64,000 nt of DNA. Source: Pseudomonadota bacterium (GTDB lineage: Bacteria > Desulfobacterota > WTBG01 > JAPLJA01). This document shows positions 5,676-56,857 of the stretch, in pieces. Location: assembly GCA_026388815.1 (NCBI GenBank), contig JAPLJA010000080.1, positions 1,838 to 65,837 of the forward strand, given 5' to 3'. The notes under the pieces were generated by a model that was not told where the DNA came from, did not search any database, and saw only the letters and a program-made list of their open reading frames with translations. Position 1 is the stretch's first letter; each line of letters starts with the position of its first letter. The position numbers and the translations under genes are program-made.

Positions 5676-6091
5676 AAAAATCTTCCCGTTACGATACCCC
5701 CACCCTCATTGAAGCCCAATTTGAACCTGGTTCCCGCGGCCGGGTACTGAAAAATTTGTTGGGTATTAAAAGCAAGGCAGAGATGGATCGGGTTGAGGCG
5801 GAAGCATTGAAAAGGACTGTGGATGCGTTCGTTCGGGCTTGTGAAAGATCATATCGGTTTACCGCCTCAGGCATCTGCAAAATACACAAGGTGTGGCTGG
5901 GGGGAATTTATGAGTGGGCCGGTAACTACAGAAAAATTAATCTCAGCAAAGGAAAGTTTACCCTTGCATCCGCTATGCAGATTCCTACCTTAATGGAGGA
6001 ATTTGAGAAAGGGCCGCTGTATAAACAGGGACCAGCATTGGGGGCGGGTTCATATTTCTCATATTTCTGTGTACCAGAATGGGCAGGATAG
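5672..6091 (+). pseudogene. Fic/DOC family protein, N-terminal fragment lacking the HxFx(D/E)GNGR motif
   Basis: CKIHKVWLGGIYEWAGNYRKINLSKGKF parallels the E. coli Fic segment IHRQLYQDIFDWAGQLREVDI. The ORF ends before the catalytic loop. Its ATGA overlaps the upstream stop. Confidence 0.55.
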
Positions 6092-31920: not shown

Positions 31921-32025
31921 AGGATTAATGCGAAAACAATGAACGATGATCAGGGCGCAGCAAGCAGCGCCCATACCGGGGAATGGCAAGGCAATTCAAA
32001 AACATCACATAATAGGGGGTGGAAG

Positions 32026-33417
32026 ATGAAAAAGATTCTCTGTTTGACCGTGACTTTGATGGTTCTTATGACAGGCCTTGCCCACGCCGGCACCGTCAAT
32101 CTGCCTCGAACAGGCCAGACGAAATGCTATGACACATCCGGTAATAAGATTACCTGTGCAGGCACAGGCCAGGACGGAGACATTCAGGCTGGGGTGGCTT
32201 GGCCAGAGCCGAGGTTTACAGATAATGGCGATGGAAGAATGACAGATAACCTGACAGGACTTATGTGGACAAAAGATGCTAACTTGCCTGGAGGCACAAA
32301 GATATGGCAAGAGACTCTCGATTACTGTAACAATTTAACTTTAGGTGGGTACTCAGACTGGCGTCTCCCTAACATAAATGAACTGGAAAGCCTGGTCAAT
32401 GGCGCCGAATCCAATACCACCACCTGGCTGAATACCCAGGGCTTCACCAATGTGCAGGCCGACGGCTACTGGTCCTCTACGAGCTGCGCCGGCCTCCCGG
32501 ACCTCGCGTGGGTCGTCCATATGTGGTATGGCCTCGTGGTCACCAATGTGTGTTATTCCGGCGTGTGCTACGGCAGTAAGTCCGACGACTACTACGTTTG
32601 GCCGGTGCGTAGCGGACAGGTTGGGTCATTGGAGAATTCGGTAATTTCACTTCCCCAGACCGGCCAGACAAAGTGTTTTGGCACATATGGCAATGAGATT
32701 CCCTGTTCAGGCACAGGACAGGATGGTGAAATCCAGGCCGGAGTTGGCTGGCCCAACCCGAGGTTTACCGACCATGGAGATACCGTAACTGACAATCTAA
32801 CAGGGCTCATGTGGACAAAGAATGCCGGTCTGCCCGGTGTCCAAGAAACATGGCAACAGGCACTCAACTATGTGAAAGGAATGAATTCAGGCACCTATCA
32901 AAGCTATGGCTATACCGACTGGCGCCTGCCTAACCGGAAAGAACTGCACAGCTTAACTGACTACTCACAGCATGGTCCAGCACTGCCCTCATATCACCCT
33001 TTCCCCAATGCCAACAGAGACTGGTCTTCTACTACCTTCGCCTACGACCCGGGCTACGCGTGGATCGTCGATATGTGGGATGGCATCGTGTGCGATAGCA
33101 CTAAGTCCGTCAGCTTCTACTACGTTTGGCCTGTTCGTGGTGGACAGTCTGGGCCATTAGATCATTGGGTCATTTCCGGCGCCATCATGCATAGGGGGTC
33201 TGGCTTGCAGAATGTTACTATGACCTTAAGTGGGGATGCCTCAATGACCACATCAACAAGGGCAGATGGTACCTACTCCTTTACGGATCTCTCCAATGGC
33301 ACCTATGTCATAACCCCCAGCAAGAGTGGCTATAAGTTCTGGCCCAAAAGCAGATCTATTACAATAAACGATTCAGACGTGTCCGAACAAAACTTTAGGG
33401 GGATAAAAATGCGGTAA
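32026..33417 (+). CDS. Secreted protein with two DUF1566 (Lcl C-terminal-like) domains and a CarboxypepD_reg-like beta-sandwich
   Basis: Signal peptide MKKILCLTVTLMVLMTGLAHA. The block LPxTGQTKC..GTGQDG.IQAGV.WP.PRFTD...DNLTGLMWTK...DWRLPN..EL.SL...YWSSTS...YVWPVR.GQ occurs twice. Tail GTYSFTDLSNGTYVITPSKSGYKF. Confidence 0.8.
   Translation: MKKILCLTVTLMVLMTGLAHAGTVNLPRTGQTKCYDTSGNKITCAGTGQDGDIQAGVAWPEPRFTDNGDGRMTDNLTGLMWTKDANLPGGTKIWQETLDYCNNLTLGGYSDWRLPNINELESLVNGAESNTTTWLNTQGFTNVQADGYWSSTSCAGLPDLAWVVHMWYGLVVTNVCYSGVCYGSKSDDYYVWPVRSGQVGSLENSVISLPQTGQTKCFGTYGNEIPCSGTGQDGEIQAGVGWPNPRFTDHGDTVTDNLTGLMWTKNAGLPGVQETWQQALNYVKGMNSGTYQSYGYTDWRLPNRKELHSLTDYSQHGPALPSYHPFPNANRDWSSTTFAYDPGYAWIVDMWDGIVCDSTKSVSFYYVWPVRGGQSGPLDHWVISGAIMHRGSGLQNVTMTLSGDASMTTSTRADGTYSFTDLSNGTYVITPSKSGYKFWPKSRSITINDSDVSEQNFRGIKMR
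32448..32616 (+). other. DGR variable-region-like segment VR3 (remote, with a 24-nt insertion relative to the TR)
   Basis: Aligns to the TR coding strand, with most differences at TR adenines (AACAAT->GACGGC, AGCAACGCCAACAAC->AGCTGCGCCGGCCTC). There are also several non-A changes and a diverged 3' end. Confidence 0.55.
33007..33144 (+). other. DGR variable-region-like segment VR4 (remote)
   Basis: TGGTCTTCTAC..GCGTGGATCGTCGATATGTGGGATGGCATCGTG..TACGTTTGGCCTGTTCG aligns to the TR. Differences are mainly at TR adenines. The 3' end GTTCGTGGTGGA differs from the TR's GTTCGCGCGGGA. Confidence 0.55.
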
Positions 33418-38658: not shown

Positions 38659-38687
38659 CTCCTTCTCCTCCCTTAAATGTTATTAAT

Positions 38688-38760
38688 AGAATTCAGGAGT
38701 CAGAAGCCAGGAGTCAGAATATTTCTTCTTCTGAATTCTGGCTTCTGTATTCTGGATTCC
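38688..38760. repeat. Hairpin repeat family E, copy 2
   Basis: AGAATTCAGGAGTCAGAAGCCAGGAGTCAGAATATTTCTTCTTCTGAATTCTGGCTTCTGTATTCTGGATTCC. Confidence 0.65.
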
Positions 38761-42380: not shown

Positions 42381-42474
42381 TGCATCTTCCTCCCCCTGTT
42401 ATAAAAACCGAAGTATTGCAAATATCTATTTAATCGATTTTTGTCAAGACTTTTTATAATCTAAGTAATTTTGT

Positions 42475-42547
42475 AGAATTCAGGAGTCAGGAGACAGAAT
42501 CCAGAATATTTCTTCTTCTGAATTCTGACTTCTGTATTCTGGATTCG
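42475..42547. repeat. Hairpin repeat family E, copy 3
   Basis: AGAATTCAGGAGTCAGGAGACAGAATCCAGAATATTTCTTCTTCTGAATTCTGACTTCTGTATTCTGGATTC. Confidence 0.65.
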
Positions 42548-42580: not shown

Positions 42581-43690
42581 TCAGAAGATGATTTTAAGTT
42601 TCTCCTCTGAAAAAAGCCTGTCCTCAGGTTTGAGGTCATTCAGGTCAGCAATTTCCCTCCACCGTTTTGGGTCTCCCAGGATTTTTTCAGCCACTGACTT
42701 AACGGTATCGCCTTCCTGTGCAGTGTAGATCTTTATATGCTGGAGTTGCTCTTTTGGACCGTATGCTATCCCATCTATATGGGTCAGGTATTCATCAGCA
42801 AAGATCCCCTCCTTCTGATACCTTGACCTCCCCTCTGGATGCTCGGCGATGTCATCTTTTGCCTTGTCCATGGCGAGGGTGACTTTTGCCCGGGCCGCAG
42901 TCCTCCCCATCCTGTCAAAGATATCCGGATGAGTCATGTTATACTGCTGATAGCCAAGGGGTGTCTGACCCTTCTTGGAGAGCCTTGCCTGGAAAACGGT
43001 CATCTGCAGGGGATCATATCCAGCCTTGAACATATAATCCACGCCCTGGGCATCTGCCAAGAACTCCTTTTCCCTCCCATACCCCAGCATGATAGAGTTA
43101 AAGAGCATGTTTGTGGCCTGCATCATCTCCCGGCCGGTGGGACCGGCAGCAATACTGCCCAGGGTAAGAAGCTGGAGCGCCAATCCTTCAGAGATGAGAT
43201 TGGCGCTGTCTCTGCCTACCACATGGCCGATTTCATGTCCCAGCACCCCTGCCAGCTCCGATTCGCTATCCAAAAGGGCGAGCAATCCCCTGGTGATGTA
43301 GATATATCCGCCGGGAACGGCAAAGGCATTCTCAATCGGCGAGTCAAGGATCTTGAAATGGTACTGGATATTCCGCCGGGCACAGACCTGGACCAGTTTT
43401 TGACCGATCTCATTCACATAGGCCTGGAGCCCCGGATCATTATAGTAGCCAAGTTCCTTGACGATCTCAGGGTCAACCTTCCTTCCGATACTCAGTTCTT
43501 TGTCTTCACTGATGACCATAAAGTCCTGCTTCAAGGTGACAGGGTTGACCGCTGTGACCGCTGAGCAGCCAGAGAGGAACAGCAGGAGCACGATTGTGAA
43601 AATAAAGAATTCAGGAGTCAGGAGACAGAATTCAGTAGATTTTTTATGCTGACTTCTGACTTCTGAATTCTGGATTCTTTTGCCTCTCAC
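42581..43690 (-). CDS. M48-family zinc metalloprotease lipoprotein with C-terminal LysM domain
   Basis: HEIGHVV zinc site, lipobox LLFLSGC, and C-terminal YTAQEGDTVKSVAEKILGD..W..IADLN (LysM). The GTG start overlaps the hemW stop (GTGA). Codons about 5-28 are formed by repeat family E copy 4. Confidence 0.75.
   Translation of the reverse strand: MRGKRIQNSEVRSQHKKSTEFCLLTPEFFIFTIVLLLFLSGCSAVTAVNPVTLKQDFMVISEDKELSIGRKVDPEIVKELGYYNDPGLQAYVNEIGQKLVQVCARRNIQYHFKILDSPIENAFAVPGGYIYITRGLLALLDSESELAGVLGHEIGHVVGRDSANLISEGLALQLLTLGSIAAGPTGREMMQATNMLFNSIMLGYGREKEFLADAQGVDYMFKAGYDPLQMTVFQARLSKKGQTPLGYQQYNMTHPDIFDRMGRTAARAKVTLAMDKAKDDIAEHPEGRSRYQKEGIFADEYLTHIDGIAYGPKEQLQHIKIYTAQEGDTVKSVAEKILGDPKRWREIADLNDLKPEDRLFSEEKLKIIF
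43607..43677. repeat. Hairpin repeat family E, copy 4 (inside the 5' end of the M48 ORF)
   Basis: AGAATTCAGGAGTCAGGAGACAGAATTCAGTAGATTTTTTATGCTGACTTCTGACTTCTGAATTCTGGATTC. Confidence 0.65.
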
Positions 43691-45972: not shown

Positions 45973-46383
45973 TCAACTCTCGATTAAGAATCCCTCTCTC
46001 GCAAGATATTCTTTTGGCTTTATTATTTCGATTCCTTCGTATATATGCAAATTTAGTAAATGTCTGTCTCCTGAAATAATGTAGTCTGCCTTACCGTCGA
46101 TAGCGCACTCAAGAAAAATATTATCGGTTGGATCTACCGTAATTAACGAAATCTTGCTCTTGGTTTCTAACAGCTCAGCACAGTTTCTTAAGTTTGTTAC
46201 AAATGGGATGACCTCTTGAGGTGAGAGTCCAAATTTTGAATAACCCAATACGCGCATAAACTCTCTTTCCATTTCTTTGCTGAGAAGCATAGTCAGCTTC
46301 CCATCACGTATCAGATTATAAACCCTTCGTGGATAGCCATCCCGGAAAAATGCAGCAATCGTAACATTCGTATCCAGGACAAT
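45973..46383 (-). CDS. PIN-domain toxin; the conserved N-terminus has no canonical start codon
   Basis: The track ORF starts at Met 46290, but the same frame is open upstream and encodes KRIVLDTNVTIAAFF.. (the PIN catalytic Asp box). Only ATT, ATC or CTG are available as starts. C-terminal ..DNIFLECAIDGKADYIISGDRHLL. Confidence 0.55.
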   Translation of the reverse strand: MVLDTNVTIAAFFRDGYPRRVYNLIRDGKLTMLLSKEMEREFMRVLGYSKFGLSPQEVIPFVTNLRNCAELLETKSKISLITVDPTDNIFLECAIDGKADYIISGDRHLLNLHIYEGIEIIKPKEYLAREGFLIES

Positions 46384-46388
46384 CCTTT

Positions 46389-46622
46389 TTAATGAATACC
46401 CCGTGATTCATGGATTATCTTTTCAATATCCTCCTCAGTCAGTTTATTGAACCCTTTTCCCTCTGCAAGGGATTCTGCATAGCTGTATATCTCCGATTCT
46501 TCGACTGGTATCAACATCACATCAAAAACCTTTCCGACTTCTTTTGCCGCATCATCTGGCAATGAAAGATGCCCATCTGGCAAAACCCGACCTATGAATC
46601 TGCGTGTTATTGTTGTTTTCAT
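46389..46622 (-). CDS. Putative antitoxin (small, AbrB/SpoVT-like N-terminus)
   Basis: 77 aa, immediately upstream of the PIN gene. GRVLPDGHLSLPDDAAKEVGKVFDVMLIP resembles a swapped-hairpin DNA-binding fold. Confidence 0.4.
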   Translation of the reverse strand: MKTTITRRFIGRVLPDGHLSLPDDAAKEVGKVFDVMLIPVEESEIYSYAESLAEGKGFNKLTEEDIEKIIHESRGIH

Positions 46623-46775
46623 GGGAAATCACCCCTTCCTTTCAGTGCTGTATTTTTCTACCCCAAAATATCTATTCTTTCTATAACTGAAAATGGTCGG
46701 TCTCCTGTTATACCTGCCTTGTTCCTTGTCTTCTGTTTTTAGCTAAAACCTCTTTGCTTTTTACTCTTCACCCAT

Positions 46776-46908
46776 CATTCCACATTCCACATTCCAAAAT
46801 CCGCATTCTCCTAACCCCCAATCCCTAATCCCTAATCCCGAGCCTTTTCGGCATCGCACTCACCAGCCCGCATATTCGTGAATGGTGAATGGTAAATCGT
46901 CAATGGTC
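46776..46908. repeat. Three short heptamer tandem arrays: (CATTCCA)x3, (AATCCCT)x2.8, (GTGAATG-like)x4
   Basis: Arrays at 46776-46796, 46820-46839 and 46878-46908. The first and last are imperfect reverse complements of each other. They lie directly 3' of the large target gene. Confidence 0.6.
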
Positions 46909-46909
46909 A

Positions 46910-49900
46910 TTACCTCAAACTGTGAAATACACGTGGAGCAGCTGATACCGGGCCATGTAATGTTGAAGTACCATTGAGGTCGATGTCTTCAAGTTTGTAG
47001 TAATAGGTCTTACGGTTCTGAACATTCTCATCAACAAACTGATATGTCGCTCCCTGCGTGGCAGATCCCTGGGCTGGAATCAATGAGGAATTGATCTTTA
47101 CGTATTCACCATTTTCTGATTCAGCGCGGTAGAGGTTAAAACCTGCATTGTCGATTTCAGAGGCGGTAGTCCATTTGAGAATGATTGCTCGGTCAGAGGG
47201 GGTGGTGGTGAAGGAGGAAAGGGTGATTAACGTCGGTTCACACGCATCACCTATCCCATCGCCATCTGAATCCTGTTGACCGGGGTTAGAAATGTTGGGG
47301 CAGTTGTCAACTATATCTGCTATCCCATCGCCATCGGAATCCATTAAGGCAATAAAATCCATACCGGTTACATCTGCATCAATAACATCAATTGTCTGGC
47401 TCAGCGGATCAAAGGCATAACCGGAAAGGGATGGTGTAATGGTGTATGAACCGTTGAACACTCCGGGGAAAATGTAATTCCCGGCAGAATCGGTTGTGGT
47501 GGTCATTGAGAAGGTACCGGATAGAGCCAGGGTAATACCTTCCAGTACATCCCCCGTTACCGTGCCAGATAGTGAGTAGGTAGGAACAGAATCAGGATCA
47601 AGAGGGTCAGAGCCTCTCTGAATCTCAATATAATCGCTGTAACTGTCTTCGTCGGTATCGTTCAGTAATGGGCTCGTCCCTCGAATATACTCTTCACCGT
47701 CGTTGAGACCATCACTATCTGTATCCGGGTTGCTCAAGTCAGTCCCTAAAGATGTTTCCTGGACATCAGTGAGCCCGTCATGATCACGGTCGTCGTTGGT
47801 TGCAAAGTTAGAGAGGAAGCTTTCTGTCCCGTCTGACATCACTGCTGAAACAGCATATACCCTGGTTGTAACTGATGAATTTTCTACCCAAGGGTGGTTG
47901 GTATAAAAGGAACTGACGGTTGAGGTTCCCAGTTGGGAGGGGTATGGCTCATCTATTTGTTTTGAGTAGATTATGTATCCTGTTGCCTCAGGATATGCGC
48001 TTGCATCCCAGGTGAGCTTTGTTATTAGGCCGCCTGAATCCAGGGGATCTGCCTGAAGTCCAGTGGGGGGAGAGGGTACATTTACCGTAATCCTGTCATC
48101 CGATGTTGAGTCTACGGTGAAAGAAATGTTGGTAGTAGTAGCGTGGTTAAAGCCCCAGTATTCCCTGTTCACAGCCTTTTCTGAGTCAGAATAGCTCAAG
48201 GCCAAGCGATAATCTTCTTGATAGGCGTCTTTAAGATAGAGGGTGTACAGACCATCAGCCGTATTTTTGATGCTTATTGTTCCACCGTCCTTATCTATTG
48301 AGATTATACTATCGGGGATTTCATCTTCCCGTATATCAGTTGCTGGATTAATGCCACTTTTTCTACCGAGAGGATCTATGAGGTAGGGCTGGACCCGTCC
48401 TCGCACCGAGATTGTCATCCTAGGCGTGTCAGGAGCACCGCCAGACAAGAGATAATTACTCGAACCTGTCATAAGCGGAGAAGATGCTGGTGTTTTACCT
48501 GTAATAAACTCTACAATCTCATTACTGTATGTAGTGATTAATTCGCTGTGCTTACCCTCCTTCTCATCAACAGAGTCCATCCCTGAGATGATGGCGCTGT
48601 TTTTAAGGACAGTCCCATCACCTTCCCCTGTTTTTGTTGGATCACCTTTTGGTACGCCATCCTTATATAGGTTATTTGGCTTCCCAACATCAATTACCTC
48701 AATAGTATTTTTATTTATCCCTGCAAATATTTTAACTTCCTTGACTGAGAGGGCAAGATTCCTATTCAATGTAATGAGACTCTTATTGTAACTTTCAAGG
48801 TCACCAATGCTTAATAATGGCGTGCATTCTGAACCGAGCGGAGAGAAAAAGCATTGCCTTAAAAACGGATAGGTTGGCAAAAGCTCTCTTACCGATTTTA
48901 CGTGTTCATGCACGAAATCTCTTATCAGAATATTATTTGGTTTTATAACTACGGCGGGGGTGCTCTGGGCATGTGTTTCAAAGTTTGAAAACGCCCTTTT
49001 ATTCATTTCCTTATAGATATTCTCCAAAACATTCGTATATAAATTAATGAAAAAATCACTCAATCCATCATTCAAGTTGTCAGCCAGTTTTGGGTCCCCG
49101 CCTTCCCAGATGTAGTAGGCATTGGCAGCCCCCTGGTTTGGTGTGCCCACCATGGCAAACCTGTCAATGTCTTTCTGGTAGTCACTGCTCTGAATGTAGG
49201 ATCTCACCACAAGCCCGCCCATGCTGTGGGCAATGATGTGTACCTTGTCAGTACCAGCGATATCTTGGGCTCTGTCAATCCATCGCTTGAGGTAATTTTT
49301 AGCACAATCGTCTATTTCTAATCTCCAGTCATAGGGCACAGGGAAAATGTTGCACCCAACCTCATAATTGGGGTCTACGGATTTAATCTTTTCCGCCAGC
49401 AGTTTCCAGCCTGGCTTGCTGTCAGGTTGGCCGGAGTTATAGTCAAACAATCCGTTAAATACTTTATCTCCAGATTTTCTCCATCTTATGTCATACCATG
49501 GAGGTGAATCGGCAGGCAGAGTGGGATAGTTTTGGTCTGCTGTGGTGGAACCCATAATACCCGGTACAAGCAATATAGGGGTTAAGCCTGTAGGATTACA
49601 TGCGCTTCCCAGTATAACCAAATCCTGGCCGACACACTGATTGCTTGGGAGACATAGTGGAAATGTTTCGCTTACTCTGCTCTCTTTTACTGCCCAGAGA
49701 GAATAGTATCCGGATGAAACAGGTGGAAACTGGTAGTTGCCATTGCTGTTTGTGGTTGTCGAAAGTTGATTGGTCCCCCCATCATCCAACCATACGGTGG
49801 CACCTTCTATTCTATTTCCGCTGCCATCTCTCACGGTTCCGCCCAGAGAGGAAAGATTTGAAATTCCTCCTGTTATGCTAAAGGAGTTACTCTCCCCTGA

Positions 49901-50965
49901 TTTACCACCACCATTTGTTCTGATGTTTATACTGTTTCCGGGACTATCGAGCTTTACAGAAAGCGTAGCAGTGCCATTAGTAAAGTAAGCTTTCATCGGG
50001 CTTACCATACCGATTGTGGCACTCAAAATAGCTTCCCCGTTAAATTGTGTTGCTGTATCGCCATTCCTATCCTTTGCATTAATGGTGATCACAAAGGGTA
50101 CGTTAACAGTCTGGGGGGATGTGATGGAAGAAAAAGAAAAATGATCAAGCAAACCATAGGCCGTAAAATCCTGCCCAGTTACATTGCTTCCTGAGATGTT
50201 TACAATTCTTGATGGAGGATTAAAGGTATATCCCGTTAGACTGGGCGTTATAGTGTATGTGCCGTCGGCAAGGTCAGTGAAAGAGTACGTTCCATCAGAG
50301 ACCGTTGTAGTGGTTTTTGAGACCGTTCCAGACAAGGTCACAGTGACACCGGCCAGGCCGGAGCCGTTGTAGGTAACGCTGCCGGAAATAACCAAATTAC
50401 CAAATGACCCAGACTGTCCCGCGCGAACAGGCCAGACGTAGTAGTAGTAGCCGGACTTATTGCTGTTGTGCACGTAGCCAAAACACATACTGACGATCCA
50501 CGCGTAGCCCGGGTTGCTGGCGTAGCTCGTAGAAGACCAGTAATAGCCGGCCTGCACATTGGTAAAGGGATGCCCGGCGGGTAAGGCTGGCGAGTATTGT
50601 GAAAAGTCAGTCAGGCTGTGTATTTCCTTCAGGTTGGGAAGACGCCAGTCATGATAGCCGTAATTGGGATAGGTTCCGGCATTCATCCCTGCCACATAAT
50701 TCAGCGCTTGCTGCCAGTTCATGTATCCATTAGGAAGATTTGCATTCTTTGTCCACATCAGGCCGGTGAGATTATCGGTTGCCGTGCCATTTCCATGATC
50801 GGCAAACCGTGGCACAGGCCAGGCAACACCTCTTTCCAGGTCGCCGTCATCGCCGCTGTAATAACTCGCTTTCTGCCCTGTTTCCCATATCGGCGCCGGT
50901 TGGCAAAATGCCGCGCTCGCCAAAGCCGTAACCAAAATCACAACAAAACATATTATCTTTTTCAT
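46910..50965 (-). CDS. 1351-aa secreted multidomain protein (DGR target 2): N-terminal DUF1566 domain carrying VR2, beta-sandwich/Ig-like domains, alpha/beta-hydrolase (lipase-like), thrombospondin-type-3-like Ca-binding repeats, FN3-like C-terminus
   Basis: Start at internal MKKIICFVVILVTALASAAF (ATG 50965, GGAGGG upstream, 2 nt after the RT stop). GxSxG nucleophile elbow in HIIAHSMGGLVV (Ser codon 49223-49225). DTDSDGLNDGEE and DSDGDGIADIVDNCPNISNPGQQDSDGDGIGDAC repeats. Confidence 0.85.
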   Translation of the reverse strand: MKKIICFVVILVTALASAAFCQPAPIWETGQKASYYSGDDGDLERGVAWPVPRFADHGNGTATDNLTGLMWTKNANLPNGYMNWQQALNYVAGMNAGTYPNYGYHDWRLPNLKEIHSLTDFSQYSPALPAGHPFTNVQAGYYWSSTSYASNPGYAWIVSMCFGYVHNSNKSGYYYYVWPVRAGQSGSFGNLVISGSVTYNGSGLAGVTVTLSGTVSKTTTTVSDGTYSFTDLADGTYTITPSLTGYTFNPPSRIVNISGSNVTGQDFTAYGLLDHFSFSSITSPQTVNVPFVITINAKDRNGDTATQFNGEAILSATIGMVSPMKAYFTNGTATLSVKLDSPGNSINIRTNGGGKSGESNSFSITGGISNLSSLGGTVRDGSGNRIEGATVWLDDGGTNQLSTTTNSNGNYQFPPVSSGYYSLWAVKESRVSETFPLCLPSNQCVGQDLVILGSACNPTGLTPILLVPGIMGSTTADQNYPTLPADSPPWYDIRWRKSGDKVFNGLFDYNSGQPDSKPGWKLLAEKIKSVDPNYEVGCNIFPVPYDWRLEIDDCAKNYLKRWIDRAQDIAGTDKVHIIAHSMGGLVVRSYIQSSDYQKDIDRFAMVGTPNQGAANAYYIWEGGDPKLADNLNDGLSDFFINLYTNVLENIYKEMNKRAFSNFETHAQSTPAVVIKPNNILIRDFVHEHVKSVRELLPTYPFLRQCFFSPLGSECTPLLSIGDLESYNKSLITLNRNLALSVKEVKIFAGINKNTIEVIDVGKPNNLYKDGVPKGDPTKTGEGDGTVLKNSAIISGMDSVDEKEGKHSELITTYSNEIVEFITGKTPASSPLMTGSSNYLLSGGAPDTPRMTISVRGRVQPYLIDPLGRKSGINPATDIREDEIPDSIISIDKDGGTISIKNTADGLYTLYLKDAYQEDYRLALSYSDSEKAVNREYWGFNHATTTNISFTVDSTSDDRITVNVPSPPTGLQADPLDSGGLITKLTWDASAYPEATGYIIYSKQIDEPYPSQLGTSTVSSFYTNHPWVENSSVTTRVYAVSAVMSDGTESFLSNFATNDDRDHDGLTDVQETSLGTDLSNPDTDSDGLNDGEEYIRGTSPLLNDTDEDSYSDYIEIQRGSDPLDPDSVPTYSLSGTVTGDVLEGITLALSGTFSMTTTTDSAGNYIFPGVFNGSYTITPSLSGYAFDPLSQTIDVIDADVTGMDFIALMDSDGDGIADIVDNCPNISNPGQQDSDGDGIGDACEPTLITLSSFTTTPSDRAIILKWTTASEIDNAGFNLYRAESENGEYVKINSSLIPAQGSATQGATYQFVDENVQNRKTYYYKLEDIDLNGTSTLHGPVSAAPRVFHSLR
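50417..50562 (-). other. DGR variable region VR2
   Basis: Hand alignment to the TR over 146 nt gives 19 differences at TR adenines and 1 non-adenine difference. The 3' end GTTCGCGCGGGA is identical to the TR. Confidence 0.85.
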
Positions 50966-50967
50966 CG

Positions 50968-52602
50968 TTAGCCCTCCTGGGGTATCAGTTTCGCTACCGG
51001 CAGGCGTTCCTTTATCCTGCCCAGGTATCTTCCTGTCTCCTTGATGATTACAACCGGTAGACCTTTTCTCAGCAGTCTTCCCGCATACTCCTTTTCGAGC
51101 CTTACCGGAAAACCGTATGTGACCGGTCTCGTTCTCGCGGTAATGCTCCGAAGTCCGAGGATGTTTTGCACCTCCGCTTTTATTTCGGAGTAGCATTCAA
51201 AAAAACACCCCACCTGGAAGAACATGAACATGCCCTTGAACATGTTTGCATAATGTAAATACTGGCTTTTTACAGAAGAAAAGAGGTGTGTTGGTTTTAT
51301 GGCATAATTGCGGGGAATCACTTTATCGTTGTCAAAATGGAAATATTCTCTTAAAAATGAATATCTTTGTATGATGGTCTGTTTAAGCCGGTATGCATCC
51401 GCCCACTTGAGATGGCCGAAATACGAGGCGATGACAGAACGGAGCCGGTTGATAAGTTCGTAGTCATACCTGATAATGCGTAACCCGTCATGCTCCGAGA
51501 TCAACCGCTGTTGAAACCATTCTAATTTTTCCCTCAGGTTATTCACCACCCTCCTCCGTACCAGCAGGTAATCTTCCCGGATGATATAGCCTAAAAAATC
51601 TATGCCGTTTGACACCGGCAGGATTCTTCCGTGCTTTTCGTTGAGTGATAGGTTGAGCTGGCGTGACACAAACCCGCTGATTTTTTCCTTTGCTTCTGTT
51701 AGAAATTCCGGTGATTCATGGAGGATGACAAAATCGTCACAGTACCGTACATAGTACCGGCATTTCAAGGTATGCTTTACAAACTGATCAAGTGCGTTGA
51801 GATAGACGTTGGCGAAGAACTGACTGGTGAGGTTGCCGATAGGCAGACCTCTGTTCTCCGGCGCGCTGAACAAGCTCTTCTGAACGGGAATCCGTTCACG
51901 CAAGTGCTTCTTTCCTTTGATGATGCAATGATCCGTGGGACGATGGAATATGATGGTGTGGGCAAACGAGCGCATCTGTTCATCCCCTACCTTCTTTTCA
52001 ACGATCCGATAAAGGATCTCTTTGTCAATTGACATGAAAAAATTCTTAATATCCAGATGCATGAAATAGAGCCTTTTTCTGCCGTTCCGGCTGCCTTGCC
52101 GTATGAAGCCGCGCAAACGTTCCACTGCCTTGTGTAACCCTTTATCCTTCCGGCATGCATAGGAGTCGTAGATAAAAACAGGTTCAAAGATGGATTCCAG
52201 TCTTTCGACCAGGATGTGGTGAACGACCCTGTCCCTGAAATCGGCGGCTATAATCTCTCTCATCTTCGGTCGTTCAACCATGAAGCAGACAGAACGGGTG
52301 GGCTGATAGGTTCCCTGTTGGAGCTCTTCTGAAAGGTTTAAGAGATTCTCTTCGGCGTTTATCTCAAATTTCAGGCAATTGATGGTGTTCCGTTTATGTT
52401 TCCTGCATGTGAGATAATTCCGGTACAGATTTTCAAAAGAGAAGAGGGGAGGCAGCCACTCTCCCGCGCGAACAGGCCAGACGTAGTTGTTGTTGTTGGA
52501 CTTATTGTTGTTGTTCACGTTGCCATTCCACATATTGACGATCCACGCGTTGTCCGGGTTGTTGGCGTTGCTCGTAGAAGACCAGTAATTGTTGGCCTGC
52601 AC
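50968..52602 (-). CDS. DGR reverse transcriptase with C-terminal MutS-domain-I-like extension (the ORF as drawn includes the TR at its 5' end)
   Basis: LPIGNLTSQFFANVYL (DGR-specific I/LGxxxSQ), RYCDDFVIL (YxDD), N-terminal LFSFENLYRNYLTCRKHKRN. The last ~100 aa, ..FFQVGCFFECY..GLR...R......GFP......Y...LL.KG..V, resemble MutS domain I. Confidence 0.9.
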   Translation of the reverse strand: MQANNYWSSTSNANNPDNAWIVNMWNGNVNNNNKSNNNNYVWPVRAGEWLPPLFSFENLYRNYLTCRKHKRNTINCLKFEINAEENLLNLSEELQQGTYQPTRSVCFMVERPKMREIIAADFRDRVVHHILVERLESIFEPVFIYDSYACRKDKGLHKAVERLRGFIRQGSRNGRKRLYFMHLDIKNFFMSIDKEILYRIVEKKVGDEQMRSFAHTIIFHRPTDHCIIKGKKHLRERIPVQKSLFSAPENRGLPIGNLTSQFFANVYLNALDQFVKHTLKCRYYVRYCDDFVILHESPEFLTEAKEKISGFVSRQLNLSLNEKHGRILPVSNGIDFLGYIIREDYLLVRRRVVNNLREKLEWFQQRLISEHDGLRIIRYDYELINRLRSVIASYFGHLKWADAYRLKQTIIQRYSFLREYFHFDNDKVIPRNYAIKPTHLFSSVKSQYLHYANMFKGMFMFFQVGCFFECYSEIKAEVQNILGLRSITARTRPVTYGFPVRLEKEYAGRLLRKGLPVVIIKETGRYLGRIKERLPVAKLIPQEG

Positions 52603-52607
52603 ATTTG
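52462..52607 (-). other. DGR template region (TR)
   Basis: The coding strand encodes NVQANNYWSSTSNANNPDNAWIVNMWNGNVNNNNKSNNNNYVWPVRAG with 17 AAY (Asn) codons. It is about 86% identical to VR1 and VR2, with mismatches confined to its adenines. Confidence 0.9.
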
Positions 52608-52755
52608 CCCACCCACTTTGAGTTCTTCACCAGGCAATTCCTTGAAGGATATGCCTGATTGCCAGCTAATGCCCGCCTTCGGCGGGCGGGATGGGCGCAC
52701 AGTGGTTTGTCTCTGCACACCTGCCAGTCTCGATATGATAAAGGCAGTTCTGGCA

Positions 52756-53148
52756 TCATCCACCCTCCTGGTTGTTTCTTATCCAGCCTTCGTTCTGTCT
52801 GCTCATGGAGATTGTTTCTTCGATGGCATGTTGAAAGGAATCAAAGTTTTTAAATGCCTTCACCTCCTTGCATATCCTGAGGGTAACCTTGAGATCTTCT
52901 ATGGTATCCCTGAGTATGGCCAGGGTTGTCTGTTTATCCCGTTCAGAGTTTGCCCTGATAACAAGCCTGACCACCTCACGGGACAGACTCCTCACGTCTG
53001 TTCCCAGTGTATATTTATGATACCGTGAGAATCCTCTCACAATATTTTCAAGGTAGATGGTTAAATCCATAGCCTTCTTGTAGAGGGGAAGATGTTCGTA
53101 CTGTGCCATAAAATCATAAAAAATATTTTCAAATAACCGAATAATCAA
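52756..53148 (-). CDS. avd: DGR accessory variability determinant (Avd, four-helix-bundle family)
   Basis: HLPLYKKAMDLTIYLENIVRGFSRYHKYTLGTDVR...VIRAN... has the Avd-like pattern, and the gene sits between target 1 and the TR. The track start is TTG; an alternative ATG lies at 53109. Confidence 0.75.
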   Translation of the reverse strand: MIIRLFENIFYDFMAQYEHLPLYKKAMDLTIYLENIVRGFSRYHKYTLGTDVRSLSREVVRLVIRANSERDKQTTLAILRDTIEDLKVTLRICKEVKAFKNFDSFQHAIEETISMSRQNEGWIRNNQEGG

Positions 53149-53157
53149 ATAACCTAA

Positions 53158-53730
53158 TCACTGTCCCGCGCGAACAGGCCAGACGTAGTAGCTGCCGTAG
53201 GACTTATAGTTGTAGCCCACGCGGCCATTCCACATACCGACGATCCACGCGTCGTCCGGGTAGAAGGCGTAGCTCGTAGAAGACCAGTAATTGTCGGCCT
53301 GCACATTGGTAAAACCCTGAGAGCTAAGCCAGGTGGCTGAATTAGCTTCTTCTCTATTGATGAGGCTTTCCAGCTCATTCACACTGGGTAAGCGCCAGTC
53401 GGTGTAGCCGCACAGGTTTAGATTGTTACAGTCATCAACGGCCTGATACCAGGTCCTGATGCCATTTGGAAGATTGGCATTCTTAGCCCACATCAGGCCG
53501 GTAAGGGTATCGGTGACGCAGTCACCATTTACCTGAAACCTTGGGCTCGGCGGGGCTACACCAGCCTGAATGGCGCCGTCCTGCCCGGTGCCCGGACAGG
53601 GGATTTGATTTCCGGCTGTGTCATAGCATTTCTTCTGGCCGGTTTTTGGAAGGTTGACGGTGCCGGCAAGGGCAAGACCGGATACGAAGAACAGTAATAT
53701 TACGGTTAAAGAAAGGATTCGGTTTTTCAT
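53158..53730 (-). CDS. DGR target 1: secreted single-domain DUF1566 protein with C-terminal VR1
   Basis: Signal peptide MKNRILSLTVILLFFVSGLALA, then LPKTGQKKCYD..GTGQDGAIQAGV...DTLTGLMWAK..DWRLPSVNELESL...YWSSTSYAFYPDDAWIVGMWNGRVGYNYKSYGSYYVWPVRAGQ*. Confidence 0.85.
   Translation of the reverse strand: MKNRILSLTVILLFFVSGLALAGTVNLPKTGQKKCYDTAGNQIPCPGTGQDGAIQAGVAPPSPRFQVNGDCVTDTLTGLMWAKNANLPNGIRTWYQAVDDCNNLNLCGYTDWRLPSVNELESLINREEANSATWLSSQGFTNVQADNYWSSTSYAFYPDDAWIVGMWNGRVGYNYKSYGSYYVWPVRAGQ
53164..53309 (-). other. DGR variable region VR1
   Basis: Hand alignment to the TR over 146 nt gives 20 differences, every one at a TR adenine (T on the printed strand). Confidence 0.9.
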
Positions 53731-53790
53731 TTTACCCCCATTTTTATCACCCAAAGAAATTATCCGCCTCCGGCGGACCAAACGTTTTGT

Positions 53791-53977
53791 GTAGGGGCAA
53801 CCCCCTGTGGTTGCCCTTTGTTAAAATTCCCACAACAGGGCAGACACGCGGGTCTGCCCCTACGGGCGTATTGCCATACGCCTCGTCAATCAATATTCAT
53901 CCCCGGTAGGGGCGAGCCGCCGGTTCGCCCCTACGTCATGCATATCAACCAGAATAGGGTAACCATGCTGGTTACCC
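53791..53977. repeat. Array of five GC-rich REP-type hairpins, several flanked by GTAG/CTAC
   Basis: GTAGGGGCAACCCCCTGTGGTTGCCC; GGGCAGACACGCGGGTCTGCCCCTAC; GGCGTATTGCCATACGCC; GTAGGGGCGAGCCGCCGGTTCGCCCCTAC; GGGTAACCATGCTGGTTACCC. Confidence 0.65.
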
Positions 53978-54022
53978 CACCAGAAAAGAATTATTAAATT
54001 GTAATAAGGAATAATTATTGCG

Positions 54023-54070
<48 letters not shown>

Positions 54071-54349
54071 TTTAAGAGGCTTACTGATTATTTCAGGAAT
54101 GGTAAGAATACTGCTGGCCAAAACTGATCTCCTCTCGTGAAGATAGCTAACGAATTTTTACCTGGCCAAGCTGATACTTATCCTTAGATGCAGAGACAAT
54201 TATTAACGAATAATATATAATGTCAAGAAAATTCTTTTAAAAGCATGGCAAATTCAAGAGGATATGACCAGCCTGTTTTTTTGCAGGAGACGCTGTCCGT
54301 AAGTCAAAGTTCCCTTTACTTACATACCATTTTGCATTACCCTTTTTAC

Positions 54350-56857
54350 ATGGAAGGCATTAATCTCTCCACTGTGGAGCACCCCAGCAGGTATCTTGGA
54401 GGGGAACTCAACTCGGTTAAAAAGGATTTGTCAAAGGTGAAGCTGAAGGTTGCCCTTGCCTTCCCGGATACCTACGAGGTGGGGATGTCCCACATCGGCC
54501 TCCAGATTCTCTACCACCTCCTGAACCAGCGGGAAGACATCGCCGCAGAGAGGGTCTACGCACCCTGGCTGGACATGGAGCAGCAAATGAGGGAAAGGGA
54601 GCTACTGTTATGTTCCCTTGAATCTTCGATTCCCTTGAGAGAGTTCGATATCGTCGGCTTTTCCCTCCAGTACGAGCTCTCCTACACCAACGTGGTGAAC
54701 ATGCTCGACCTGGCGAAGATCCCATTTTACGCCCGCGAGAGGGATGAGCGCTATCCGCTCATCATCGCAGGTGGCATCTGCTGTTTTAATCCAGAACCAA
54801 TTGCCGACCTCTTTGATGCCATGGTCATCGGCGACGGGGAAGAAGTAATATTGGAAATTTGCGATTGCTATCTCAGGTGGAAGAAAACAAAAGGAAAAAA
54901 GAAAGATCTCTTAGATGAGCTCTCGAGGATTGAAGGAGTGTACGTTCCATCCGCTTTTCAGCCTCTCTACAACCCTGACCATACGATGAAAGAAATAGTG
55001 GCTCTGGACGGACATCCTCAGCAGATCAAGAAGAGACTGATTGCCAACCTGGATCAGGCCCCCTATATCACGAGCCCCATTGTCCCCTTTATGCGGATCA
55101 TCCATGACCGGATCAATGTGGAGATAGCGAGAGGGTGCACCCGGGGATGCAGGTTCTGCCTTGCGGGCATGGTCTGCCGTCCGGGCAGGGAGAGGAGCCT
55201 GAAGACGATCAATGATCTGGTGGACCAATCGTTAAAGGCAACAGGATATGAGGAGATCTCCCTCACTTCCTTGAGCAGCGGTGATTACAGCAATATTGAG
55301 GTCCTGGTAAAAGGGCTCATGGAGAGGCTGAACGAGGAAAGGGTTGCTTTATCACTCCCGTCACTCCGGGTTGAAACCCTCACCGCCGACCTCATAGAAG
55401 AGATCAGGAAAGTAAGGAAGACCGGCTTTACCATTGCACCGGAGGCAGGGACTCAGCGCCTGCGGGATGTAATTAATAAGGGGATTACTGAGGAGCAGAT
55501 TTTTTCTACCATTGAGGCAGTATTCAAGGGCGGCTGGAGAGGGATCAAGCTCTATTTCATGGTGGGACTGCCTACCGAAACAGAGGAGGACAGGCTGGGG
55601 ATCCTCGAACTGTGCAGGAGGATTAAGGGGGTAGCAAAAAAGATCTCTCCTGCCCTGGGGATCAATGTAAACATCTCGTCGTTTGTTCCCAAACCCCATA
55701 CTCCTTTTCAATGGGAGGTTCAGCTCTCACTTCAGGATATGAGAACAATAACCCATTTTCTCTCGAAAGAGTTGAGGAGGATGGGACTGAATCCCAAATG
55801 GCAGGAGCCGGAGATGAGCCTGCTTGAAGGGGTGTTTGCCCGGGGCGACCGTAAGCTCTCAAAGGTAGTCATTGATGCCTGGAAGATGGGATGCCGCTTT
55901 GATGGATGGAAAGAGGCTTTTCGTTTCGACCTCTGGCAGAGGGCATTTGAGGAAAACGGGATTGATGTGCATTTTTATACCAGCAGGCATCGCTCTCTAA
56001 AAGAAGTTCTGCCCTGGAGCCATATTGATCCTCTGGTTGAGAGAGAATTTCTGGAGAAGGAAAGAGAAAAGGCTTTTACCGCTGTACTCACTCCGGATTG
56101 CAGGACTGGTGAATGCGGGGGATGCGGGGCCTGTACTGACAGGGCGCCTGGGAAAATGTCAAATGTCATCCGCCGAGGCGGACAAATGACAAAGTTCGGA
56201 GTATGCCCGGAATTACATGCATCGAAAAGGCCTTCACCCTTGAAAGAAAAGAGGTTCCGTTGCCGGTTCTTTAAACTGAACGAGGCCCGTCTCTTCAGTC
56301 ACCTGGAGATGATAATGGTTTTCTCCCGGGCAATCAGGAGGGAGGGAATACCCATAAAATATTCTGAAGGGTTTCATCCCCTGCCCCGGATAATCTCCGG
56401 TCCTGCTTTGCCTGTTGGCATGGAGAGCATCTGCGAGGGCATAGATTTCGTCGTATCAGGAGACATGAGCCCGTCCACCTTTCTCAAGAAAATGAACAGG
56501 GAACTGCCCTCTGGCCTAAAATTCCTGGAGGCCGAAGAAGTTCCATTGAAATTCTCGCCAGTATCTGATACAATACATAATGTTAACTATTTAATTTCCC
56601 TTGCCTCTTCTGACTCCTCTTCTGTGCGCTTGCTGGAGCAGCTCAAAGGCGCTCCTGAATTGAAGGGGAAGGGTGTTGGGGAGGGTGAAAAGCCGTTATC
56701 CGCTCTCGAGATTGGGGTTCTGGATAGCACATTTCTCTCGGTAAGAATGGAGGAAAAGATGGGGTTATCAAAGGCTCTTCAGGGATTTTTTCACATCGAC
56801 CCGAACGGACTGAGAGGGATGAGGGTCCTCAAGACTCAGTTCATAAAAGGGAATTAG
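54350..56857 (+). CDS. Fused B12-binding-like radical SAM protein plus DUF2344-type domain (the family usually found next to RNase E/G)
   Basis: VEHPSRYLGGELNSVKKD.. N-terminus, RGCTRGCRFCLAG (CxxxCxxC), and a C-terminal ..FSHLEMIMVFSRAIRREGIPIKYSEGFHPLPRI.. domain. Start at the internal ATG 54350. Confidence 0.8.
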   Translation: MEGINLSTVEHPSRYLGGELNSVKKDLSKVKLKVALAFPDTYEVGMSHIGLQILYHLLNQREDIAAERVYAPWLDMEQQMRERELLLCSLESSIPLREFDIVGFSLQYELSYTNVVNMLDLAKIPFYARERDERYPLIIAGGICCFNPEPIADLFDAMVIGDGEEVILEICDCYLRWKKTKGKKKDLLDELSRIEGVYVPSAFQPLYNPDHTMKEIVALDGHPQQIKKRLIANLDQAPYITSPIVPFMRIIHDRINVEIARGCTRGCRFCLAGMVCRPGRERSLKTINDLVDQSLKATGYEEISLTSLSSGDYSNIEVLVKGLMERLNEERVALSLPSLRVETLTADLIEEIRKVRKTGFTIAPEAGTQRLRDVINKGITEEQIFSTIEAVFKGGWRGIKLYFMVGLPTETEEDRLGILELCRRIKGVAKKISPALGINVNISSFVPKPHTPFQWEVQLSLQDMRTITHFLSKELRRMGLNPKWQEPEMSLLEGVFARGDRKLSKVVIDAWKMGCRFDGWKEAFRFDLWQRAFEENGIDVHFYTSRHRSLKEVLPWSHIDPLVEREFLEKEREKAFTAVLTPDCRTGECGGCGACTDRAPGKMSNVIRRGGQMTKFGVCPELHASKRPSPLKEKRFRCRFFKLNEARLFSHLEMIMVFSRAIRREGIPIKYSEGFHPLPRIISGPALPVGMESICEGIDFVVSGDMSPSTFLKKMNRELPSGLKFLEAEEVPLKFSPVSDTIHNVNYLISLASSDSSSVRLLEQLKGAPELKGKGVGEGEKPLSALEIGVLDSTFLSVRMEEKMGLSKALQGFFHIDPNGLRGMRVLKTQFIKGN

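Follow-up and report, generated by a model that had tools for sequence, protein, structure and literature searches.

A chromosomal diversity-generating retroelement with two lectin-like targets, a structured RNA upstream of its template repeat and a reverse transcriptase carrying a MutS-like domain

The minus strand of the window, a 64,000-nucleotide stretch of contig JAPLJA010000080.1 (assembly GCA_026388815.1), carries a chromosomal diversity-generating retroelement (DGR), which can be called complete with high confidence. The element is arranged as an operon in the order target gene 1 with the variable repeat VR1, avd, a structured RNA, the template repeat (TR), the reverse transcriptase (RT) gene and target gene 2 with VR2. 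It is a well-known DGR type in a variant architecture. Should the readings of the RNA and of the MutS domain given below be wrong, it would still be a typical and well-preserved DGR, one among the very many known. [quoted passage not shown] DGRs are being engineered in E. coli for directed evolution.

Layout of the element, its proteins and their relatives

The complete DGR of the original prediction (target-avd-TR-RT) is borne out, as a DGR-type RT, Avd, the TR, two VRs and the 3' boundary are all present, and two VR-bearing genes make the element multi-target as proposed. The interval first assigned to it, 50968-53730, is incomplete, with VR2 and target gene 2 (50965..46910) falling outside. 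The core of the element had been recognized correctly; overlooked were the MutS domain I, the location of the TR inside the RT frame, the N-terminal position of VR2 and the RNA upstream of the TR. The features of the cassette are listed below.

54199-54226, minus strand: promoter-like site, TTGACA-16-AATAAT, upstream of the operon (a consensus match only)
53158-53733, minus strand: target gene 1, 191 aa, with a signal peptide, an Lcl_C/DUF1566 lectin-like domain and VR1 at the C-terminus (ORF and Pfam)
53164-53307, minus strand: VR1, 144 nt, 19 mismatches to the TR, all at TR adenines
52756-53109, minus strand: avd, 117 aa from the ATG at 53109 (the mechanical ORF begins at TTG 53148); Pfam bAvd PF22296, 41.7 bits (cut-off 40 bits)
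52598-52710, minus strand: structured RNA between avd and the TR; MFE -51.7 kcal/mol, z -3.2
52462-52605, minus strand: TR, 144 nt, 47 A, 18 AAY codons, in frame within the RT ORF
50968-52602, minus strand: RT gene, called as 544 aa from GTG 52602 (predicted start); Pfam RVT_1, E 2.5e-19
50971-51321, minus strand: C-terminal MutS domain I of the RT, motif FQVGcFfEC; Pfam MutS_I, 25.8 bits (cut-off 20.6 bits)
46910-50965, minus strand: target gene 2, encoding a 1351-aa secreted multi-domain protein (ORF and Pfam)
50417-50560, minus strand: VR2, 144 nt, within target 2 at about residues 136-183, 18 adenine mismatches and one G>T

Sites resembling the promoter are no more frequent in the region than in shuffled sequence.

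The RT ORF contains RGLPIGNLTSQFFANVYL and YVRYCDDFVIL, and both of the DGR hallmarks named in the original prediction, LPIGNLTSQ and YCDD, are found in it. The best solved relative of the window RT is bRT of the Bordetella DGR (8ub7; 156.6 bits, E 1.2e-44), which scores far above the group II intron RT LtrA (63.6 bits) and retron-type RTs (35.6 bits), and the identity to the BPP-1 RT is 31.7% by tblastn. No protein identical to the window RT is on record; its best match among GTDB representatives, at 68%, belongs to a Thermodesulfovibrionales MAG, and this hints at a Nitrospirota-like bacterium. No stop codon interrupts the RT frame across the TR, which runs directly into the RT coding sequence with no spacer. 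Neither ATG nor GTG nor TTG occurs between the end of the TR and the conserved LFSFENLY, and, as far as the sequence goes, the RT start must therefore lie in or before the TR unless a non-canonical codon is used. The Avd-like protein predicted upstream is recognized by the Pfam profile, and its orthologues are 117 aa long in the related loci L001, L002 and L006 and 119 aa in L004 and L005.

Both targets contain an Lcl_C domain (PF07603, formerly DUF1566; E 9e-32 and 7e-32), and each VR spans the last third of the domain. In target 1 the Lcl_C match (E 8.9e-32) covers residues 72-188, in agreement with the earlier placement of VR1 at the C-terminus of a secreted DUF1566 protein. Target 2, whose ATG is found 2 nt after the RT stop codon, consists of an N-terminal Lcl_C domain with VR2, CarboxypepD_reg repeats, an LCAT/PGAP1-like alpha/beta hydrolase and TSP3 repeats. 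By family, the VRs are placed in a presumed lectin-like fold of the ligand-binding DUF1566 class. Two secreted lectin-like proteins, a short one and the N-terminal part of a 1351-aa protein that also has a lipase-like domain, would be diversified together, which suggests that an uncultured anaerobe varies its recognition of ligands or cells.

None of the ORFs of the cassette is disrupted, and the RT retains its conserved motifs. The cassette recurs, with mismatches at adenines only, in L001, L002, L004, L006 and in more than 15 others. The RT has 7462 relatives, and members of this DGR clade occur in Nitrospirota, Thermodesulfobacteriota, Omnitrophota, Leptospiraceae, Xanthomonadales, candidate-phyla bacteria and others.

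Template and variable repeats

By its sequence, the TR is the unvarying master for the final 48 codons of a DUF1566/Lcl_C lectin-like domain. The length common to both VRs is 144 nt, not 146 nt as first given, and the 17 AAY codons counted originally become 18 unless the first, non-varying AAT is omitted. In the computed alignment, 19 of the 19 VR1 mismatches (P about 6e-10, given 47 A in 144) and 18 of the 19 VR2 mismatches (P about 2e-8) fall on TR adenines, so that the expected bias is confirmed. The claim that every VR1 difference is at an adenine stands, and the count of 20 is reached only if the boundary G/C position 145 is included. Of the 19 adenine differences claimed for VR2, 18 are found at adenines and one is a G>T, and VR2 is not purely adenine-specific. 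The final 24 nt (..TACGTCTGGCCTGTTCGCGCGGGA) are identical across the TR, VR1 and VR2, and beyond them the TR continues with GAGTGG and the VRs with CAGTGA and CAGTCT, as the original prediction had described for this GC-rich end. The switch from G in the TR to C in the VRs constitutes an IMH/IMH*-type boundary by sequence, and it recurs in L001, L002 and L004.

The element resembles the prototype, the DGR of Bordetella phage BPP-1 (mtd-avd-TR-Sp-brt), in its order target(VR)-avd-TR-RT, in its adenine-specific TR/VR differences and the presence of Avd, and in a GC-rich 3' end that is common to TR and VR and is followed by a TR/VR-specific boundary. BPP-1 differs in having a single C-terminal VR, in a phage tail fibre, whereas two targets are found here on a cellular chromosome, one of them with an N-terminal VR. 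By analogy with BPP-1, the RNA spanning the TR would be copied into cDNA by an RT-Avd complex with random incorporation opposite adenines. The cDNA would then replace VR1 or VR2, guided by the shared GC-rich 3' end, and up to 18 Asn codons would be varied in the ligand-binding face of the two secreted proteins. Target recognition in Bordetella uses a hairpin or cruciform downstream of the VR. Such a hairpin is not universal among DGRs, and just 3' of the VRs of this element only a weak one without significance, spanning the VR end, was predicted (-5 and -13 kcal/mol; z 0.17 and 0.14), which counts against the reading.

Relatives of the RT are labelled 'retron-type reverse transcriptase' by gene annotators, and one might suppose that the repeats are merely ordinary paralogous lectin domains next to an unlinked retron or group II intron RT. 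This reading, to which next to no probability was given, is refuted by the adenine specificity of the TR/VR mismatches (P below 1e-7) and by the RT scores, 156.6 bits for DGR bRT against 35.6-63.6 for retron-type and intron RTs. It is also at odds with the presence of Avd in the cassette and with the lack of an intron RNA and of any Rfam retron or intron match.

The activity of the element, called apparent in the original prediction, is supported by the comparison of assemblies. L001 is 91% identical to the window element and its TR is identical at 143 of 144 positions. Between the two, VR1 differs at 21 of 46 adenine sites versus 2 of 98 other sites, and VR2 at 17 of 46 versus 2 of 98. The flanking gene DNA has diverged by 9-13% (87-91% identity), whereas the non-adenine VR positions are 98% identical, which would require repeated homogenization by the TR after the split. 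In L002 and L004, non-adenine changes in the TR recur in their VRs. As judged from these sequences, the VRs have been held identical to the TR at non-adenine positions while their adenine positions changed after the split from L001, and this, together with the conserved TR, argues for ongoing retrohoming.

An alternative is that the DGR died recently, its genes still looking intact and the adenine-specific VR differences being a fossil of past activity. The evidence for activity comes from the comparison of assemblies, VR2 has one non-adenine mismatch, and a paralogue at 31939..33417 holds clearly drifted VR-like segments (17 non-adenine mismatches), which indicates that loss of templating does occur in this genome. 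Against these points stand the intact ORFs and RT motifs, the excess of identity at non-adenine VR positions over the flanks in the comparison with L001 and the conservation of the TR itself, and a dead element is considered quite improbable.

Extra TR-like matches at 32449 and 33001 on the plus strand were considered as remote VR3 and VR4. With 17 and 27 mismatches outside adenines, a 3' end that has diverged and an insertion, they were rejected as current targets. A scan of metagenomes for the TR pattern with A replaced by N gave 0 matches. An 18-mer from the shared 3' end hit 117 metagenome loci, none of which resembled the TR beyond the 18-mer, and these were dismissed as chance matches.

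The structured RNA upstream of the TR

The RNA between avd and the TR is composed of the following elements, together with a complementary strand at the other end of the TR.

52707-52701, minus strand: S1 (AACCACU), followed by the junction GUGC
52696-52689, minus strand: 5' strand of helix P1
52688-52671, minus strand: P2 hairpin
52657-52631, minus strand: P3 hairpin
52629-52619, minus strand: small P4
52614-52607, minus strand: 3' strand of helix P1, ending 1 nt before the TR
52454-52460, minus strand: S1' (AGUGGCU), complementary to S1 (about 245 nt further upstream)

S1' begins 2 nt past the last base shared by the TR and the VRs. Helix P1 is 99.4% paired, with 7 of its 8 pairs changed on both sides, and S1:S1' is 93.6% paired in alignment A2, with 5 of 7 pairs changed on both sides; slid controls are 36-46% paired. 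In alignment A4, 95.8% of cells are paired and both-side changes occur in 24 of 24 pairs. These pairing percentages are inflated, as complementarity was among the criteria by which the register of S1' was set in A2, and A4 was fitted to the model. In loci that were not part of the seed set, the S1 complement likewise sits at this position of the TR 3' boundary. The covariance model R1 scores 112.3 bits at the locus and finds 39 copies among 86 sources. A plausible alternative helix would join CUGUGC, located between S1 and P1, to GUGCAG of the TR 5' end; it is highly invariant and strongly constrained by coding.

The upstream RNA has no Rfam match in the window or in six related loci, and it may equal one of the RT motifs from Weinberg et al. 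2017 that did not enter Rfam. A counterpart in position is the RT-15 RNA (RF03018; Weinberg et al. 2017, PMC5737381), which is likewise a structured RNA directly upstream of a DGR TR (L081 5691-5882 with the TR at 5880-5991; also L072). The RT-15 5' end is complementary to the sequence just past the TR, as in S1:S1', a likeness seen by eye in two loci only. RT-15 gave no match to the window at E up to 1 and R1 did not report L081 or L072, so that, judged by sequence and structure profile, the upstream RNA represents a different family. RT-15 has no published function.

In BPP-1, a 144-nt spacer RNA (RF03022, L087 2328-2460) between the TR and brt supplies the primer and the stop strand, whereas in the window element the RT coding sequence follows the TR without a gap, the structured RNA being 5' of the TR. 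A Bordetella-type spacer RNA downstream of the TR was rejected on the Rfam search, in which RF03022 had no match at E up to 1 in 46000-55000, and on the lack of a consensus structure, as RNAalifold predicted none that is conserved in the 135 nt after the TR. In the positive control, RF03022 was found in BPP-1 between the TR and brt at 104.7 bits. Conversely, R1 has no match in BPP-1. The two systems have in common duplexes flanking the template at both ends, which are predicted in the element described here. The succession of S1, 4 nt, a P1 strand, the P2 hairpin and a conserved A corresponds to the Bordetella primer strand, stop-duplex strand, stem-loop and adenosines, the positions of which were read on L087 against Handa et al. 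(bioRxiv 10.1101/2023.10.23.563531). The base equivalent to the priming A56 of Bordetella is U or G here.

Based on this correspondence, we tentatively propose for this DGR clade, at not far short of an even chance, a circularly permuted DGR RNA, in which the S1 primer, the P1 stop and the stem-loop are encoded 5' of the TR. The RNA 5' of the TR would supply both template-flanking duplexes: P1, abutting the TR 5' end, would be the stop, and S1:S1' would clamp the TR 3' flank and position the primer and the start site. Since the Bordetella-like order of elements is encoded on the other side of the TR, the arrangement would amount to a circular permutation.

The upstream RNA might instead be a protein-binding platform, a processing site that fixes where the DGR RNA begins or a control element of RT translation, with cDNA synthesis primed otherwise, for example from a nicked template or from a position within the RT coding region. 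The structure rests on covariation and its function is inferred. S1' overlaps the N-terminal coding sequence of the RT and a GGAG-like stretch, and S1:S1' could therefore equally gate translation. The putative priming base is not the A found in Bordetella, and RT-15, in the same position in Burkholderiales DGRs, is without assigned function. Against a role other than priming, both helices end exactly at the TR boundaries, the order of elements copies the solved Bordetella arrangement, and the spacer and the conserved structure downstream of the TR that could have provided a primer are absent. Such a role is possible and somewhat on the unlikely side. If the permuted primer and stop module is true, the same two template-flanking duplexes with opposite connectivity would reveal the essential features of DGR RNAs, and the element would represent a second, compact RNA design that is free of a spacer, with the TR abutting the RT.

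The MutS domain I of the RT

The RT ends in a MutS domain I (residues 428-544). Its motif FQVGcFfEC, which contains Phe-X-Glu, aligns on FQVGdFyEC of Taq MutS, and the MutS-domain profile matches Taq MutS at E 9e-14 and E. coli MutS at 2e-7. G465 and E469 never vary among 23 relatives, and the sequences shown have F or Y at position 467. The AF2 model of the domain has a pLDDT of 86, and the best 50 Foldseek matches listed (to E 3.9e-3) are all MutS/MSH mismatch-repair structures, with TMq mostly 0.65-0.71 and four lower. Sequence and predicted fold thus identify a MutS-like (MSL) accessory module, for which mismatch binding is putative. The Bordetella bRT has 328 aa and no extra domain, unlike the window RT, and the C-terminal extension is covered by none of the phage records searched.

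The fused domain may bind the mismatch-rich cDNA:VR heteroduplex, and once bound it could shield the heteroduplex from host mismatch repair or bias its resolution, a role to which we give somewhat less than an even chance. An RT with a built-in MutS domain would provide a test of how a heteroduplex with about 20 mismatches escapes mismatch repair. Retrohoming of a Bacteroides DGR is lowered 5-10 fold by host mutS (bioRxiv 10.1101/2024.11.15.621889). For the Bordetella DGR, mutS was reported to be dispensable (Wu et al. 2018, PMC5758913), and this counts against a role of the MutS domain.

The closest parallels in target and accessory genes are the Legionella pneumophila DGR (LdtA) and the DGRs with CLec2/DUF1566 'category d' targets, which share with the window element a VR in a DUF1566-type lectin-like domain of a secreted or surface protein and the combination of Avd with a MutS-like mismatch-recognition module. 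The 'category d' targets with an MSL accessory gene were described by Wu et al. 2018 (PMC5758913). In Legionella and Bacteroides, Msl is a separate small protein of 112-283 aa, whereas here it is the C-terminal domain of the RT; a fusion of RT and MSL, with weak similarity, was noted in three RTs only (Wu et al., PMC5758913). LdtA has its VR at the C-terminus, whereas the VR of target 2 lies near the N-terminus of the 1351-aa protein. Among 372 DGRs, Wu et al. (PMC5758913) recorded one internal VR in a CLec2 domain and three N-terminal VRs.

Organisation and probable activity of the cassette

Every part of the DGR lies on the minus strand, in the 5' to 3' order target gene 1, avd, non-coding stretch, template repeat (TR), reverse transcriptase (RT) and target gene 2. 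The two variable repeats were located by computed repeat comparison with the TR.

53733..53158, minus: target gene 1, 191 aa, signal peptide and Lcl_C/DUF1566 domain (E 9e-32)
53307..53164, minus: VR1, in target gene 1
53109..52756, minus: avd
150 nt, minus: non-coding stretch from avd to the TR
52605..52462, minus: TR, 144 nt
52602 (frame open from here) to stop at 50968, minus: RT ORF
50965..46910, minus: target gene 2, 1351 aa, starting 2 nt past the RT stop
50560..50417, minus: VR2, in target gene 2

The original prediction of a multi-target element with two VRs is right, but its coordinates, 50968-53730, omit VR2 and its gene. The Avd-like protein placed upstream matches Pfam bAvd at 41.7 bits (cut-off 40), and both RT hallmarks, LPIGNLTSQ and YCDD, were found. 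The RT could have been nearer to group II intron or retron RTs, but among solved structures it matches bRT of the Bordetella phage best (8ub7, E 1.2e-44, 156.6 bits), against 63.6 bits for the group II intron LtrA and 35.6 bits for retron-type RTs. Its nearest named relatives, among the matches listed, are from MAGs of Thermodesulfovibrionales, Nitrospirae and Candidatus Magnetobacterium.

All 19 mismatches of VR1 (not 20) fall at TR adenines, as do 18 of the 19 in VR2 (not 19), the other being G>T. With 47 adenines in 144 nt, the chance probability of this bias is ~6e-10 for VR1 and ~2e-8 for VR2, contrary to the possibility that the mismatches are unbiased. The TR itself stands, at 144 rather than 146 nt, and the 17 AAY codons ascribed to it are off by one or two. 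The predicted identical 3' end and boundary were recovered: the last 24 nt are the same in TR, VR1 and VR2, and the next base is G in the TR and C in both VRs.

Relatives gathered by exact-protein look-up and genome scan hold the same cassette, and in more than 20 of them a scripted comparison found adenine-only TR/VR mismatches. At two related loci, L002 and L004, non-adenine changes of the TR are mirrored in the local VRs, the 3' end included. One relative, L001, is 91% identical overall and 143/144 in the TR. Between it and the window, 21/46 of the adenine sites in VR1 have changed and 2/98 of the rest; for VR2 the figures are 17/46 and 2/98, and the target DNA flanking the VRs is 9-13% diverged. 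This is indirect evidence that both VRs have been repeatedly overwritten from the TR, with adenine randomisation, since the two lineages split. The element is a complete two-target DGR, as predicted, and the TR/VR co-change and the L001 comparison make it very probably active.

DGRs are a known class, of which tens of thousands have been described, and the core of this one is ordinary; the new readings below are those that we infer. Its variant features are real and are common to a large, little-described clade: the fusion of the RT to a MutS-I domain, a TR in the RT frame, a giant target protein whose VR is N-terminal, and the RNA upstream of the TR. They open to test the organisation of priming and termination, and the escape of the heteroduplex from mismatch repair.

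VR2 lies near the N-terminus of target 2 (~residues 136-183 of 1351) and is followed by CarboxypepD_reg repeats, an LCAT/PGAP1-like hydrolase and TSP3 repeats (Pfam). In the related loci L004, L006, L009, L018, L023, L033 and L044, too, the RT is directly followed by a large target whose VR is N-terminal. Among 372 DGRs, internal VRs in CLec2 (only n=1) and N-terminal VRs (only n=3) were rarely recorded (Wu et al. 2018, PMC5758913). The target 2 orthologues of L001 (2643-3749) and the window (50965..49800) have a common lectin head and linker (..QSGSFGNLVIS), past which L001 has a different domain series that leads directly to a lipase-like domain, a switch suggestive of domain shuffling right after the VR module. 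On inspection by eye, nearby ORFs resemble housekeeping genes.

The RNA between avd and the TR

The non-coding stretch contains a structured RNA.

52710..52598, minus: structured RNA, between avd and the TR
S1: AACCACU, then junction GUGC
P1 5' strand: GCCCAUCC, after junction GUGC
P2: hairpin after the P1 5' strand
P3: hairpin with an internal loop
P4: small
P1 3' strand: GGGUGGGC, ending 1 nt short of the TR
52460..52454, minus: S1', AGUGGCU, complementing S1 and starting 2 nt past the last base shared by TR and VRs

Across 21 aligned loci, pairing reaches 99.4% in P1, with both-side changes in 7/8 pairs, and 93.6% in S1:S1', with such changes in 5/7 pairs, percentages inflated by a partly complementarity-based choice of the S1' register; slid controls are 36-46% paired. 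The covariation score is 0.642 versus 0.204 in shuffles, none of 500 reaching it. With a covariance model from nine seed sequences, a search of 86 sources gave 39 copies, mostly non-seed and from several phyla, and copies also adjoin RTs without a MutS domain. In the alignment fitted to the model all 24 modelled pairs co-vary. At the new loci an S1 complement of 6-8 bp again lies at the TR 3' boundary (GCATCATG/CATGATGC, TGCTACG/CGTAGCA and TCTCATG/CATGAGA). In the 135 nt after the TR no consensus structure was found. Covariation across these aligned sequences shows the fold of the RNA.

The RNA is absent from Rfam. The Rfam model RF03022 (Phage_DGR) matches the spacer (Sp) between TR and brt of phage BPP-1 at 104.7 bits, and has no match in the window (E up to 1) or in six related loci (E up to 0.1); conversely, the covariance model of the window RNA has none in BPP-1. 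The BPP-1 elements were placed by reading its sequence against Handa et al. (bioRxiv 10.1101/2023.10.23.563531). There, Sp53-56 pair with TR118-121, and priming is from A56; two nucleotides on, Sp59-70 form the stop duplex with the avd segment immediately before the TR, and a UUCG mini-hairpin and then GAA follow the stop strand. The window has the same local order. S1, which pairs with the flank 3' of the TR, is separated by 4 nt from the P1 strand, which pairs with the segment before the TR; next come the P2 hairpin, with a UUCG cap in L004 and a UGCG cap in the related locus L011, and a conserved A. The BPP-1 strand, however, lies 3' of the TR and that of the window 5' of it, so the window RNA would be a circular permutation of the BPP-1 arrangement. 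By this analogy it may act as a primer and stop module. The same place is taken in Burkholderiales DGRs by RT-15 (RF03018), directly before the TR (region 5691-5991 of L081 and 5696-5985 of L072). Its 5' end, GCATCGT/GGCATCG, complements by eye the post-TR ACGATG/CGATGCC, with the same logic of bracketing the template. RT-15 was reported by its discoverers without an assigned function (Weinberg et al. 2017, PMC5737381).

The RT frame and its MutS domain

TR and RT adjoin without a spacer. The RT frame runs open across the TR, as in many relatives, and the window has no ATG, GTG or TTG from the TR end up to the conserved RT N-terminus LFSFENLY. In some relatives the RT is annotated as starting at the ATG within the TR stretch that encodes NMWNG; another candidate start, a CTG after GGGAG, is present in the window and is not conserved.

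The RT is ~165 aa longer than bRT, and its residues 445-523 exceed the Pfam MutS_I threshold (25.8 bits vs 20.6). FQVGcFfEC in the RT aligns to FQVGdFyEC of Taq MutS, which holds the Phe-X-Glu mismatch-recognition motif. A profile from 20 relatives matches Taq MutS (E 9e-14), E. coli MutS (2e-7) and MSH6 (3e-5), and G465 and E469 are invariant across 23 relatives. For an AlphaFold model of the domain (pLDDT 86), the matches listed are MutS/MSH mismatch-repair structures alone, mostly at TMq ~0.7. Both PF00078 and PF01624 are annotated in most of the best 120 of 7462 relatives; none of the phage records searched spans the RT C-terminal extension. Weak MutS_I similarity in this extension was reported for three DGR RTs only, and a separate MSL accessory gene for 16 DGRs, Legionella among them (Wu et al. 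2018, PMC5758913); the latter stands alone, whereas the window domain is fused to the RT. Because deletion of host mutS raises retrohoming 5-10 fold in Bacteroides (bioRxiv 10.1101/2024.11.15.621889), the RT-tethered domain could plausibly shield the mismatched heteroduplex.

Other repeats of the window

In a secreted 492-aa paralogue (31939..33417, plus strand), two Lcl_C/DUF1566 domains stand in tandem. At the end of each is a VR-like segment (32449-32620 and 33001-33148) with many non-adenine mismatches to the TR. The first segment ends CTACGTTTGGCCGGTGCGTAGCGGA|C, which is the TR 3' end of the related locus L003 (..GGA|G). Both segments appear to be past targets, or else to belong to a second, L003-type TR outside the window.

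The upstream leader and the target 1 start are separated by a terminator-like hairpin (53762..53778, minus; GTCCGCCGGAGGCGGAT and then a weak T tract). Between the operon and a divergent radical-SAM gene is a perfect (CAGA)12 microsatellite (54023..54070), flanked on both strands by promoter-like sites, the one on the minus strand (54226..54199) with an 11/12 match. The microsatellite could be a length-variable switch. REP-like GC-rich hairpins, GTAGGGGC...GCCCCTAC, are dispersed at 53790..53935, 13152, 20415, 27743, 31897 and 45726 (half-sites: 9 observed vs 1.4 expected), three of them immediately preceding target 1 (z -7.2) and another immediately preceding the paralogue. They are often adjoined by the 13-mer AAAACGTTTGGTC (5 copies vs 0.02 expected). 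A second intergenic family, AGAATTCAGGAGTCAG...CTGAATTCTGG, is partly palindromic and has 3-4 copies (36065, 38680-38759, 42467-42546 and 43598-43677).
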